Source: a virus. From it: DNA of 64,000 nucleotides. Positions 56,313 to 59,798 of this stretch are shown here, one piece after another. Location: the IMG/VR virus record IMGVR_UViG_3300038393_002936; one strand, written 5' to 3'. The position numbers and the translations under genes were made by a program. A model generated the notes under the pieces. The model was not told where the DNA came from and did no database searches. It saw only the letters and a list, made by a program, of their open reading frames with translations. The stretch's first letter is position 1. Each line of letters starts with the position of its first letter.

Positions 56313-56379
56313 TTCCGGCAGGAAAGGTTAATAGGGGTGATTGGATGGATAACCACAACACTCCCCTCTCCTGCCGGAA
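56313..56379 (+). repeat. Composite element: motif A > motif B > spacer < motif A
   Basis: TTCCGGCAGGAAAGG TTAATAGGGGTGATTGGATGG ... CTCTCCTGCCGGAA; inverted homologs at 57055-57130 and 59681-59743. Confidence 0.8.
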
Positions 56380-56518
56380 ATTAGTTAGTCGCTTCAACGA
56401 GGAACGAGCAGGGGTTTACCCAAGCAATCCCCCTCATTAAGTCCGAGCAACGCGAGTAAAGTAAGCGACCACCTGACCAAACTTCAAGGACCATTCCAAC
56501 TCCGCCAGGGGCGAAGCC

Positions 56519-56917
56519 ATGCTGAGCAAACAACAATACCTAGACCTTCTCGTCCAAACCAGTCGCAAGGGCATGTTTCCGTCGCAAGATGGCTCGGGCT
56601 GCCTGTATCGAGGACCAAACGGGCGAAAGTGTGCAGTCGGGCTTTTGGTCCCGGATGAGTGCTTCGATAGAAGCATGAATAGTCTTTGTGCTTCTACTCT
56701 TTTTCAAAGACGTCCGGAATTACAAAGCATTATCCCGGATGGCATGAAGATTGAAGACATGACCCGAATTCAACGCATTCACGACACACAACCTTTTGAG
56801 ACCGACTGGAATCACGATGGGTTCGTAAGTCGACTCTTGGCACTGGAGTGTTTCCAGGGTCTCAAACCTTCGGTTGCTGCCGCCCAGGACAGCATCCCAG
56901 ACCCGGCCATTAACTGA
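56519..56917 (+). CDS. Hypothetical protein, family P3
   Basis: QQYLDLLVQTS.KG.FPS...CLYRGPNGRKCAVGLLVPDE. Confidence 0.7.
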   Translation: MLSKQQYLDLLVQTSRKGMFPSQDGSGCLYRGPNGRKCAVGLLVPDECFDRSMNSLCASTLFQRRPELQSIIPDGMKIEDMTRIQRIHDTQPFETDWNHDGFVSRLLALECFQGLKPSVAAAQDSIPDPAIN

Positions 56918-57020
56918 CTACCCATCAACTTCGAAACTTTGGCGGGTTCACCGAACAGATGCTGTCGTTATTGACGGGGGAACTGACGGACATGACTGCT
57001 GTGTAGAAGAGTTTTACTGT

Positions 57021-57067
57021 TTCTAGCAGTCGACTCTGTCGACGGGAGTGAAACTCCGGCAGGAAAG
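57021..57067 (+). repeat. Mini-hairpin pair in a split motif
   Basis: TTCTAGCA GTCGAC-TCT-GTCGAC GGGAGT-GAA-ACTCC GGCAGGAAAG. Confidence 0.75.
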
Positions 57068-57188
57068 TGAGCAGGGGTGGCCACAAAGCGAACCATGCAA
57101 TCCCCCCTGTTAACACCTTCCCCTGCCGGACAGCCACTTGCTCAAACCATCCCAAAGACACTTATGACTCCACCAGGGAGCGAAGCTC

Positions 57189-57892
57189 ATGTTTAGAACC
57201 GAAATCTCCCGCATCATTACCGACCTCCGATACGCCCTCTGTCCCCCGTCGCGGCCCGAGCAAGACGGTCGTCACAAGGGCATCATTTTCAACCTGACGT
57301 TGGACCTGAGCGATTACAGGGAAGATGGGACATCGAGCCTGCGGCAATTCGTCCAGATACTATTTTGCGGGAACACGAGCGTCTTTTACCGCAAATCAGA
57401 CTGGCCATTTACGAACCGTAATAATGAAATGGATTCATGGGTGAACACCTGCAATCATGATAGCTGTTGGCGGAGCGACGGGCTCCGGGTCCTAAACCAG
57501 ATGTATTTCGAAATGGCCGAAGCGGTGAACAGCGAAAAGGCCCCAATTTCACTGCACGACCATTCAGGCCTCGGAGTCATCGGTTCCCAACTCTGGGACC
57601 TAGTCTGGGTTCAACATGAGCGGGACCCAGACGACCAGCACAGATACAAGCGACGGCTTGTGAAACTGGAGGCGAGATGAGCACGACTCAAACTTGCCCA
57701 TCCTGCGGAAGTGAGATGGAGAAAAAGAACAGGAGGCGAATGAGCGACGAGCAAAAGTGGTGTGGCGAATGGTGGAATTGCCTGTGCCGCAATGGGAAAC
57801 AGTGCAACTCGACCGTTCTGATTCCAAGTCAAGAACTCGAGTCATTTTTGACAAAACAGGCTCTGGTTTCCGACAGGGGGCGAAGCCCATGA
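57189..57892 (+). CDS. Two hypothetical ORFs (57189-57680, 57677-57892 Zn ribbon)
   Basis: RBS and ATGA coupling. Confidence 0.55.
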
Positions 57893-58338
57893 ATTGGCAA
57901 CATTCATTCATCGCCAGAATCGACCTCCCCGAAGTGCTAAAAATAGACCCAGAGTGGGACGAACAGACTTACCTTGCCGTACTCAAGCACCGCGTGGCCC
58001 GTGTTGCCCGGTGTCCGATTGGACACGGAATAGTCGGGGTGGTGGTGTACGGGGCGACTCGACGCCTCCAGGAAGTCGACCGACTCCTGGTGGACCCCCA
58101 GTATCGGCGGTGCGGGGTGGGAACCGCCATGTTGCGCGACCTGGCGGCCCTCGGGCTTCGCAAGCACCGTCCGTGGATTGCCGGGTGGGTCGGCGAAGCC
58201 GATTTAGCCTCCCAGATTTGGCTCCGGGACCTCGGGGCCCAGGCTGTTTGTACGGAGGGAGACCAATATCGCTTTGTGTTGGCCTCCGGCCAACTGGTAA
58301 ACACCGAGACTGCGAAATTGACTGGAGGTGTCTCATGA
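57889..58338 (+). CDS. Second RimI-like GNAT acetyltransferase
   Basis: DLPEVLKID...L.VDPQYRRCGVGTAML...V.E..LASQIWLR. Confidence 0.7.
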   Translation: MNWQHSFIARIDLPEVLKIDPEWDEQTYLAVLKHRVARVARCPIGHGIVGVVVYGATRRLQEVDRLLVDPQYRRCGVGTAMLRDLAALGLRKHRPWIAGWVGEADLASQIWLRDLGAQAVCTEGDQYRFVLASGQLVNTETAKLTGGVS

Positions 58339-58682
58339 ACACTGAGCGTTTATTGAAGCTGGCTGACTTCCTCGACACTGTGCCGGCGGAGCAATTCGAC
58401 CTATCGAGTTGGAAATGCAGCACAACGGCGTGTGCGGTCGGATGGGCATGCACCATCCCTGAATTCCAAGACGAAGGACTACGCTCGGCCAACATGGCCC
58501 ACGCGGGATTGCCTTTGTTCGATAATAAGAGCGGATGGGATGCGGTTAACGCATTCTTCGCAGTTACAGACGAACAAGCCGACCATCTGTTTTATGATTT
58601 GAATTATCCAAACCGACACAGAACCACACCCGCCGAGGTGGCGAATCGAATCCGTAAATTGGTCATCGATTCAAGCAAATAA
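58335..58682 (+). CDS. Hypothetical protein, family P4
   Basis: ERLLKLADFL..VPAEQFDL..W.C...ACAVGWA...EVA.RIR. Confidence 0.7.
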   Translation: MNTERLLKLADFLDTVPAEQFDLSSWKCSTTACAVGWACTIPEFQDEGLRSANMAHAGLPLFDNKSGWDAVNAFFAVTDEQADHLFYDLNYPNRHRTTPAEVANRIRKLVIDSSK

Positions 58683-58706
58683 CTCGACTTCTGTTTAGGA
58701 GCAAAC

Positions 58707-59069
58707 ATGCATAAAGAACGATTGCTGAAACTGGCCGATTTCCTGGGCGAGGTTCCGGCCGAACAATTCGACCTGGCCCGGTGGCGATGTGACTCGAGTG
58801 CGTGCGCCGTAGGTTGGGCTTGCACGATGCCGGCCTTTATAGCCGAAGGCCTGAAAATCGCACACGACGGCCTTGGGTGGTTTCCCGCCTTTAAAGGTCG
58901 AGGCGGCTGGGAAGCTGTGGACATTTTTTTCGAGCTTAATCCTTATGACTCGGAATATTTGTTCGACGAAGGTTGTTACGATGGTGAAACGAAAGCGTCT
59001 CCCGCCGAAGTCGCCGACCGTATCCGAAAGTTCATAGAAAGTGGCGGCAAACGAGACGCTTGTAACTGA
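58707..59069 (+). CDS. Hypothetical protein, family P4
   Basis: Tandem paralog of 58335-58682. Confidence 0.7.
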   Translation: MHKERLLKLADFLGEVPAEQFDLARWRCDSSACAVGWACTMPAFIAEGLKIAHDGLGWFPAFKGRGGWEAVDIFFELNPYDSEYLFDEGCYDGETKASPAEVADRIRKFIESGGKRDACN

Positions 59070-59089
59070 ACAGTCTCTTCGTGAATTAT

Positions 59090-59168
59090 TTCCGGCAGTT
59101 GACTTCGTCAACGGGACCGGAGGTCCGGCAGGCGGCTTTGCCGCCGTCAACGAAGCTGACCAGGGAAG
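59090..59168 (+). repeat. Four-hairpin array in a split motif
   Basis: TTCCGGCA GTTGAC-TTC-GTCAAC GGGACC-GGA-GGTCCG GCA GGCGGC-TTT-GCCGCC GTCAAC-GAA-GCTGAC CAGGGAAG. Confidence 0.9.
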
Positions 59169-59218
59169 CCAGGGTTCTTCAGGGATGATTTCGATTGTGC
59201 CAACCGGAGTGAAACGAC

Positions 59219-59587
59219 GTGAGATTTGACCGCCTTACCCTCCTCGCCTCTTTCCTCGAATCCGACCATGTGCCAGAGGCACACTTCAATCTGGAGAACT
59301 GGGAGTGCGGCACCACCGCGTGTGCGTGCGGCTGGGCCGCTCGAATTCCCCAATTCAAGGAATCAGGATTCAAACTAAGCTCATTAGGTAATCCGCTCTT
59401 TGAAGAGTTTTCTCGCTGGGACGCCGTAATGAGGTTCTTTGAACTGAACAGGAGCCAGGCCGAGTACCTGTTTTTGGCCAGGTGTTACAAAGGTGGTTAC
59501 CAAACCACCAAGTGGGAAGTCGCCGAGCGTATTCGGGATTTCGTGGAGGTGAACCGCCTGACACCATCACTTACTACTGAGTGCTGA
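59219..59587 (+). CDS. Hypothetical protein, family P4
   Basis: WECGTTACACGWA...EVAERIR. Confidence 0.7.
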   Translation: MRFDRLTLLASFLESDHVPEAHFNLENWECGTTACACGWAARIPQFKESGFKLSSLGNPLFEEFSRWDAVMRFFELNRSQAEYLFLARCYKGGYQTTKWEVAERIRDFVEVNRLTPSLTTEC

Positions 59588-59613
59588 CGCACTCAAGCTA
59601 TTCTAAGAAGACT

Positions 59614-59693
59614 TTCCGGCAGTCGTCTCCGACGACGGGAGCGAAGCTCCCACAGTCGGCTTTGCCGACAGGACCGGAGGTCCGGCAGGAGAG
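59614..59693 (+). repeat. 80-bp four-hairpin array, homolog of 22752-22831
   Basis: TTCCGGCA GTCGTC-TCC-GACGAC GGGAGC-GAA-GCTCCC ACA GTCGGC-TTT-GCCGAC AGGACC-GGA-GGTCC GGCAGGAGAG. Confidence 0.9.
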
Positions 59694-59798
59694 GGAGAAT
59701 GGGGCGAACATCCAATCCCCCTTATTAACCTTCTCTGCCGGAACTACGTTCTCGCCAGCTCCGCTGACTGCTTGATTGACTACTTATTGGAGAAGTTT

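Follow-up and report, generated by a model that had tools for sequence, protein, structure and literature searches.

We analysed a 64,000-nt stretch of DNA (IMG/VR record IMGVR_UViG_3300038393_002936), hereafter the window, which gene calls and family scans assign to a tailed phage. We found in it three homologous composites of 65-80 nt that lie in non-coding DNA between early genes, each an inverted pair of a motif A enclosing a motif B. The explanation we lean to, tentatively and somewhat short of an even chance, is that these composites are mosaic intergenic cassettes of the variable early region, similar to the promoter early stem-loops (PeSLs) of T4-type phages and to bacterial interspersed mosaic elements (BIMEs), and not copies of one transposing unit.

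According to this explanation each composite would combine three repeated parts that are independent of one another. Two inverted copies of A, a word found throughout the phage, would form the base of a 25-30-bp imperfect hairpin. B would contribute the G or C run that pairs inside this hairpin and would act elsewhere as a module of stop codon, ribosome site and start codon, and in some copies mini-hairpins would have been inserted after the CAG of A. The composites would sit in untranslated leaders between genes of the plus strand. The hairpin, formed by the transcript or by single-stranded DNA, may separate neighbouring cistrons by attenuating, processing or stabilising RNA, and on the DNA the repeated 20-35-nt parts may serve as short homologies for the gain, loss and swap of cassettes between co-infecting strains, a mode of action reported for the PeSLs of T4-type phages.

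The three composites are given below, with B(+) and B(-) denoting copies of B on the plus and the minus strand.

56313-56379: composite 1, with B(+) at 56328-56345; left A arm, B, spacer and right A arm, 14 nt past the stop of gene 55585-56298.
57054-57131: composite 2, an inverted A pair with B(-) at 57096-57113, 75 nt upstream of the ATG that opens gene 57189.
59680-59743: composite 3, an inverted A pair with B(-) at 59711-59728, 70 nt upstream of the ATG that opens the C5 methylase gene 59799.

An earlier reading, made from the letters of the window only (the sequence-only reading), had described an inverted A pair enclosing B at three places, and we recovered all three there as homologous elements. 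By self-BLAST composite 3 is 79.1% identical to composite 1 over 67 nt, and composite 3 together with its upstream hairpin is 70.2% identical to composite 2 over 104 nt. A MAFFT alignment of the three full copies (A2), in which the left arm of composite 2 is misplaced, gave a mean column identity of 74%. All three composites have a 10-nt core, TTCCGGCAGG / CCTGCCGGAA, with purine-rich and pyrimidine-rich tails as terminal inverted repeats, and the spacers and arm tails vary among copies. As single-stranded DNA each folds into a long imperfect hairpin, with z scores of -5.65 (composite 1, -18.9 kcal/mol), -2.78 (composite 2) and -3.56 (composite 3), and in 3 of 3 folds the G or C run of B is paired with a complementary run. 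This anatomy, fold and placement are direct observations.

The nesting of B within A pairs was compared with random placement in 5,302 nt of intergenic DNA. We found B inside an inverted A pair in three cases against 0.63 expected (P = 0.025), and 8 of the 15 B copies had an A no more than 40 nt away, where 5.1 were expected (P = 0.09). The proposal that A and B co-occur beyond what intergenic density predicts is borne out for nesting and is weak for proximity. The association between A and B is real but modest, and it rests on three copies related by descent. We also noted a 31-codon open reading frame (ORF) at 56345-56440, which starts at the ATG in the B of composite 1, ends at the TAA of the inverted B copy and bears no sign of being a gene.

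The sequence-only reading had taken A, B and the mini-hairpins as one small non-autonomous family resembling miniature inverted-repeat transposable elements (MITEs) or REPINs, hairpin-forming repetitive extragenic palindromic (REP) pairs. In such an element the A arms would be terminal inverted repeats for an enzyme whose gene lies beyond the window, the cargo would be B and the spacers, and single A copies would be solo ends. We consider this unlikely. It would fit the inverted arms of 10-15 nt, which end all three composites as in a MITE, the presence of three homologous copies in both orientations relative to genes, and their hairpin fold. Unlike a MITE, none of the three composites is flanked by a target-site duplication, which that reading had suggested looking for, and the flanks have no common direct repeat of 3 nt or more. 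Further against it, the copies are just 70-79% alike with unrelated spacers. In addition, when 36 + 47 ORFs were compared with Pfam and 79 with PHROGs, transposase, integrase, HUH and HNH families gave 0 matches, in agreement with the sequence-only reading, which saw no mobilising enzyme in the window. A real repeat family does exist in non-coding DNA. Its parts proved separable, and for this reason the view of them as one MITE-like or REPIN-like family is supported only in part; that A, B and the mini-hairpins make up a single non-autonomous element is not supported.

The stretch was found in 11 soil and rhizosphere runs (X1-X11), and the contigs of four runs were compared over 44001-64000. 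These four runs had almost no depth over 55.4-58.6 kb, where composites 1 and 2 lie, and X4 and X10 almost none over 49.3-58 kb. Two differences had anchors of 255 nt. In X8 composite 3 is present, 769 nt are inserted after 59742, and a second copy of 59709-59742 (B and the right A arm) then precedes the methylase gene. In X10, 276 nt replace 48203-48225, directly behind the B(+) at 48182, and at this locus X4 and X8 carry a further B-like stretch before gene 48226. Motif-bounded cassette differences between strains are thus observed directly, and from their sequence the 769-nt and 276-nt differences look like the gain or loss of a gene, together with its junction motif, between direct repeats of that motif. 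Recombination may have caused them. The X8 contig at the 61014 leader, on short anchors, has another spacer and a 25-nt stretch in place of a 143-nt leader.

No joint at which a composite alone had been gained or lost was found in the contigs of the four runs, in which composites 1 and 2 were barely covered. Of the idea that orthologous loci would differ by presence or absence of the element, what is supported is that DNA at the motifs differs between strains; at the two well-anchored places what differs is whole gene cassettes, and the lack, in these contigs, of any joint removing a composite alone speaks against a MITE-like or REPIN-like element. The letters between joints also contain composite-like stretches at other junctions of the pan-genome, and these would suit such an element.

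The strain contigs also bear on an invertible switch, in which the segment between the A arms would flip and so explain the direction of B in composite 1 versus composites 2 and 3. It is true that inverted repeats flank a ribosome-site and ATG-like module that is seen in either orientation. We nevertheless regard a switch as highly improbable: the A arms enclose no more than 46-60 nt, no spacer among the three copies is the reverse complement of another, the Pfam and PHROGs scans of the same ORFs found no invertase, and the sole joint between opposite strands lies in a palindromic hairpin array outside the composites.

Motif A, with the consensus TCCGGCAGGRRAGG, is an asymmetric 14-nt word with a CCGG-containing head and a purine tail and is not palindromic, which tells against a MITE-like or REPIN-like end. 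We found 87 matches to TTCCGGCAG at one mismatch or fewer, where 23.5 were expected and the largest shuffle gave 34. The window holds 69 CCGGCAG cores; the purine tail is present on 49 of them (27 on the plus and 22 on the minus strand), or about 0.8 per kb. Intergenic DNA, 12.8 kb in all, holds 30 of these 49 copies, and genes, at 51.2 kb, hold the other 19. The late region has 10 copies on each strand, and overall there is no orientation bias relative to transcription.

The copies inside genes exceed what codon usage predicts. Protein sequences were kept and synonymous codons shuffled within the late and the early set (50 genes, 44,259 nt, 300 simulations). Against this null we found 10 strict 12-mer copies where 0.07 were expected, and 0 of 300 simulations reached the observed number. 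Three of these were sense (0.04 expected) and seven antisense (0.02 expected), neither value being reached in any simulation. Antisense copies in genes stand mostly in one frame, in which they code for LLPE or SLPD. One case is particularly informative:

30109-30190: inverted A pair in the coding sequence of a 538-aa protein; its antisense arm codes for the conserved peptide NLSLPD.

A search of the JGI metagenomes with the terminase had yielded one distant relative, L177 (63% terminase identity, 38% GC), whose homologue of the 538-aa protein contains NLSLPDLYP with the codons AAT CTT TCA TTA CCA GAT. In the window the same peptide is written AAC CTT TCC CTG CCG GAC, which is the A word on the opposite strand, and a partner A word lies 64 nt off. 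L177 has neither the A word nor B, its three CCGGCAGG matches being in a locally GC-rich gene and a terminator. Since this A pair lies inside coding sequence homologous to that of a relative without A, it arose in place and was not inserted. The sequence-only reading had assigned A to the element family, and this is not supported, with 19 of 49 copies in genes and one made in place from the codons of a conserved peptide. Both observations likewise speak against A arms as transposon ends.

Inverted A pairs within 100 nt have TTCCGG on the outside in eight cases and the reverse in one (P = 0.02), a fixed polarity that would suit the hairpin of a mosaic cassette and also a MITE-like or REPIN-like element. 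Their gaps of 23, 24, 46, 49, 55, 60, 64 and 71 nt suggest no preferred distance, which counts against the latter. Not one of 10 A pairs has matching tails on its two arms, where 2.1 were expected (P = 0.09); given this mismatch the word seems to be conserved more than perfect pairing. The sequence-only reading had also listed two plain A pairs, and both were located as described; they are given here with a counterpart from the late region:

42997-43038: plain inverted A pair without B, fold z -4.27.
49788-49828: plain inverted A pair, fold z -5.44, between B(+) 49686-49703 and B(-) 49849-49866 in the leader of gene 49942.
22677-22831, minus strand: late counterpart, in which a mini-hairpin array (22831-22766) precedes an inverted A pair (22765-22677) that lacks B.

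We also noted five A or A-like words within the tape-measure gene 10210-19272, at 13726, 13871, 15822, 15975 and 17815.

These properties of A raise the alternative that it is a dispersed binding site of a phage or host DNA-binding protein, and that a composite is a paired site bracketing a module that resembles a ribosome site or promoter, thereby controlling the downstream early gene. The stoperators of cluster A mycobacteriophages are comparable dispersed binding sites. We hold this to be doubtful. In its favour, an asymmetric word of 14 nt is present 49 times in 64 kb, with the word kept and not the pairing, and there is an enrichment in genes by codon choice, which fits selection on double-stranded DNA sequence. 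Moreover, the solitary intergenic copies of the early region are sense to the genes in 7 of 8 cases, and two A copies start at the predicted transcript start of sigma-70-like promoters. The window also codes for a helix-turn-helix (HTH) regulator, a sigma-like protein (weak match) and a ParB-like protein, each a candidate only. A binding site agrees poorly with the absence of an overall orientation bias, the even division of the late copies between strands and the variable spacing of paired sites, and it leaves the hairpin insertions at the CAG of A unexplained.

These insertions form a further part of the system. The window contains 50 perfect hairpins with a stem of at least 6 bp and a 3-nt loop, whereas Markov controls gave 19.6 with a maximum of 26. 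Arrays of them begin right after ...CCGGCAG at 9134, 22831 (minus strand), 31789, 59090 and 59614. Those beside the composites are:

59614-59679, plus strand: mini-hairpin array that directly follows TTCCGGCAG and continues into the left arm of composite 3, with hairpins at 59622-59636, 59637-59651 and 59655-59669.
59090-59150, plus strand: mini-hairpin array that starts after TTCCGGCAG, between paralogous genes.
57029-57043: lone mini-hairpin upstream of composite 2.

The array at 59614-59679 is 82.9% identical to 22831-22756. Two composites had been described as fused to hairpin arrays; this is correct for composite 3, and composite 2 has only the one mini-hairpin upstream. In run X8, 31 additional bases comprising two mini-hairpins are present at 59115/59116. 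Mini-hairpins are separate small insertions that begin after the CAG of A, a smaller layer of variation than the composites. Strain-variable hairpin insertions at A would also be in keeping with a MITE-like or REPIN-like element.

It is also conceivable, if quite unlikely, that the A word is a self-propagating signature of the phage lineage, a viral counterpart of REP and uptake sequences. A putative enzyme would recognise TCCGGCAG|G, insert mini-hairpins and drive near-matches, even those in genes, towards the word, and polar inverted A pairs, composites included, would be the replicating or recombining unit. If this were true, a REPIN-like system would reside in a virus and not in a chromosome. 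A dedicated enzyme targeting the A word would provide a testable handle on how phage mosaic junctions are made, and if A has no such enzyme the composites would still be useful markers of cassette boundaries in this phage group.

Motif B differs from A in its distribution. With a 16-mer and up to three mismatches we found 12 matches against 0.17 expected, all in 39926-61085, and a looser 18-mer search gave 15 copies (8 on the plus and 7 on the minus strand), all between 39.9 and 61.1 kb. B sub-types reach 6-8 nt past the core, and every sub-type is found in both orientations. Outside the composites and the half elements, copies of B include:

46822-46872, plus strand: left A arm then B(+), without a right A arm, in the leader of gene 46890.
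47122-47139, plus strand: B(+) alone, in ribosome-site position 4 nt ahead of the ATG of gene 47144.
48182-48199, plus strand: B(+) alone at a gene junction.
48486-48503, plus strand: B(+) alone, its TAA being the stop of gene 48226-48489.
49686-49703, plus strand: B(+), its TAA being the stop of gene 49402-49689.
49849-49866, minus strand: B(-) in the leader of gene 49942.
51412-51429, plus strand: B(+) alone, its last base opening the ATG of gene 51429-51674.
56423-56440, minus strand: B(-), 78 nt before the ATG of gene 56519, the inverted partner of the B of composite 1.

B(+) overlaps the stop codon of two genes and directly precedes or touches the start codon of two (47144 and 51429). By eye, a B copy 1 nt longer before gene 51719 is a third start-codon case. 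B too had been assigned to the element family; its solitary occurrence at gene junctions, as a stop codon, ribosome site and start codon module, does not support this. Several B(+) copies lie 20-30 nt before a start with another ribosome site nearer, and every one of the 7 B(-) copies is found in a leader, 42-143 nt ahead of a plus-strand start codon. Seven leaders share one modular plan (alignment A1), in which a left A arm is followed by B(-), by a right A arm where there is one, and by a conserved stretch that ends in a GCGAAGC-type mini-hairpin immediately before the ATG. B was also considered as an integration host factor (IHF) site; by eye, the consensus was not matched.

The leaders themselves merit a separate remark. 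The GCGAAGC-type mini-hairpin GGGRGCGAAGCYC stands right before the ATG of four early genes (51150-51161, 56511-56521, 57180-57191 and 57880-57891) and is preceded by a shared CTCCGCCAGGG stretch, an unusual conserved start-site context.

With B present on both strands of the early region, RNA-RNA control is another candidate. B(-) in a leader would pair as an anti-ribosome-site with the B(+) of other early genes on the same transcript, and the A hairpin would set which pairing forms. This is the sole model that gives both orientations of B a role on one strand. If the early genes are organised in operons, both orientations would be transcribed in the plus direction. B(+) also touches start codons, and local pairs exist at 49686/49866, 56328/56440 and 51098/51412. 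We judge the model improbable all the same, as local partners differ at three or more positions with no compensating changes and several B(+) copies have a ribosome site closer to the start than B itself.

The sequence-only reading had located half elements, which we found where it placed them:

48996-49086, plus strand: half element with a sigma-70-like promoter (48996-49024), left A arm (from 49034), G run and B(-) (49069-49086); leader of gene 49129.
51025-51115, plus strand: half element with a promoter (51025-51053), left A arm (from 51063) and B(-) (51098-51115); leader of gene 51159.
61014-61085, plus strand: half element with left A arm, spacer and B(-) (61068-61085); leader of gene 61229.

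In the first two the left A arm begins 8-10 nt past the -10 box of a TTGAC-17-TATTTT promoter. These promoters share a 15-nt extended motif that is present three times in the window (0.33 expected); at half element 61014 no sigma-70-like promoter was called. The first two are also part of a duplication that includes a gene, 48991-49352 versus 51020-51382, with 85.7% identity over 364 nt. None of the half elements folds as a hairpin (z +0.65, +0.66 and +0.25). Judged by their sequence, the half elements at 48996 and 51025, which lie behind sigma-70-like promoters within the duplication, are leaders and not broken transposons.

Of the systems described, the PeSL of T4-type phages comes closest, and the nearest architecture is that of BIMEs and REPINs. 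The passages of PMC2839356 and PMC4122927 that we draw on describe a PeSL as made up of a stop codon, an early promoter, a stem-loop in which polyC often comes after polyG, a Shine-Dalgarno sequence and a start codon. They place PeSLs in hyperplastic regions upstream of ORFans, where they bound indels between close T4-type relatives, and report measured terminator and promoter activity. The composites resemble PeSLs as short composite intergenic motifs in a phage variable region, upstream of small genes of unknown function, in which a stem-loop with G and C runs is combined with a stop codon, ribosome site and start codon. Further parallels are a stable stem-loop (DNA fold z -2.8 to -5.7) and motif-bounded indels between close relatives (769 nt and 276 nt). 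They differ in that the sigma-70-like promoter is found here only at two duplicated half elements and not at full composites, and in that the stem is made from a 14-nt word that also occurs in genes and in the late region and has mini-hairpins inserted.

Several results weigh against the composites being mosaic cassettes of this kind. None of the three has a sigma-70-like promoter at or beside it, and full composites therefore lack a defining PeSL feature. No T run follows any of the three, and none is among the 23 terminator-like sites (24.2 expected). RNA folds gave no consistent sense advantage: the sense strand was the more stable one for three of the five early-region pairs and for neither of the two late-region pairs. 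One composite has B on the plus and two on the minus strand, and occurrence in both orientations is more usual in mobile DNA than in a regulatory signal. The A word is the most unusual part of the composites, and the mosaic-cassette model leaves its enrichment in genes and the entry of mini-hairpins at A unaccounted for. Only two strain differences have long anchors; most other joints have anchors of 21-38 nt that end at A, B or hairpin motifs, and we did not count them as evidence. These short-anchor joints (46835>61013, 57113>61235, 60733>61015, 59114>59665, 59617/59666, 59696>59107 and 54435>49685) may reflect only short repeated motifs in divergent contigs, or alignment effects.

With the promoter missing at full composites and PeSL-type activity assigned by analogy only, we say of a mosaic cassette that it may work like a PeSL and do not class it as one. 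Short repeated cassettes that mark sites of accessory-gene swapping are documented mainly for T4-type phages. In this uncultured phage of soil or rhizosphere the window shows a similar layout. Its building block is different and stranger, a word of 14 nt that codon choice also writes into coding sequences and that receives tiny hairpin insertions.

Other known systems share single features. In the parts of PMC3116915 that we draw on, REP 16-mers are almost wholly extragenic (14 of 1,067 overlap genes) and REPINs have preferred spacings. Like REPINs and BIMEs, the composites have two inverted short repeats with a spacer and a predicted hairpin, are built of over-represented words and form mosaics with other motifs. 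Unlike them, A is not palindromic and not confined to extragenic DNA, its arms show no clear preferred spacing, no REP-associated tyrosine transposase (RAYT) or Y1 transposase was found in the window, and at least one A pair arose in place in coding sequence.

Uptake sequences of Pasteurellaceae and Neisseria, as far as the relevant portion of PMC2346458 describes them, are similar in being a 10-14-nt word on both strands, at a density comparable to the value of about 0.8 per kb found here, partly in genes and with intergenic inverted pairs as hairpins. The antisense copies in genes, here mostly in one frame, add to the likeness. The difference is that the word here is in a phage, and no host with the word was found in the genomes searched. 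No link to DNA uptake can be drawn.

Integron attC sites differ: no tyrosine recombinase was found in the window by the Pfam and PHROGs scans, and the A arms do not have the attC core sequence. The mobile elements of mycobacteriophages (MPME) are ultra-small mobile DNA. Comparable to these, the 15-nt mini-hairpins beside composites are strain-variable as 31-33-nt two-hairpin units; unlike them, the A-B-A composite showed no comparable indel in the strain contigs.

Relatives and a host were sought in several collections. The A 15-mer gave 55 single matches on 55 IMG/VR contigs, none with B and with at most three A cores, and the B pattern gave 66 loci there with 0 having an A core; both sets are chance matches. 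An IMG/VR protein scan with gene 57189, a 16-kb query of the GenBank phage collection and a search of the JGI metagenomes with gene 54474 returned no relative. In 401 Planctomycetota genomes A was not found as a repeated word (0-4 copies per genome, like the reversed control). The A-pair pattern in species genomes gave at least 121 scattered loci in unrelated taxa, and among the matches listed one had two or more A words and one a B-like match.

The late genes of the window are on the minus strand at about 9-40 kb, and small, mostly unknown and partly paralogous genes are on the plus strand at 40-64 kb. Rfam and tRNA scans of the whole window gave no match. Genes with recognisable products include:

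9786-10238: HTH regulator (Cro/C1-type), adjoining a Fic protein.
10210-19272, minus strand: tape-measure protein of 3020 aa.
31292-33574: portal.
33575-35803: large terminase.
39062-39676: sigma-like protein, a weak match to sigma-70 region 2.
54474-55163: ParB-like protein.
59799-60761: C5 cytosine methylase.
35775-36275: ERCC4 nuclease, by family scan.

Paralogous sets of the early region are 49129/51159, 49402/51429/51719, 52060/56519/61948/62501 and 58335/58707/59219. The third set (52060-52578, 56519-56917, 61948-62328 and 62501-63013) belongs to one PHROG family of unknown function (phrog_17693), and in one member a zinc-finger-like CXXCXGXG stretch at the C terminus falls below the Pfam cut-off. 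The last set consists of tandem genes at 58335-59587 with hairpin arrays in between, where X4 and X8 contigs, on short anchors, suggest a rearrangement or copy-number difference. On the minus strand, 9167-10238 places a Fic/DOC-family protein beside the HTH protein, a toxin-antitoxin-like or regulatory pair next to the tape-measure gene.

The sole textbook intrinsic terminator of the early region is at 54353-54377, an 11-bp stem followed by TTTTTATTT, and an A word lies at 54422, 45 nt after it. Between genes 46139-46396 and 46890 there are 490 nt without an ORF (46397-46889), which contain a minus-strand A word (46725-46738), a B-like stretch and G-rich runs. Near 46790 we saw by eye a minus-strand sequence matching the early promoter motif in its -10 part, and this 490-nt stretch may be a leftward non-coding transcript. 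Other long stretches without a convincing ORF are 19273-20385, 36657-37352 and 7617-8873. Finally, 8269-8605 and 8620-8956 form a diverged tandem repeat (56% over 337 nt), and 36125-36242 and 37366-37484 are 73% alike.

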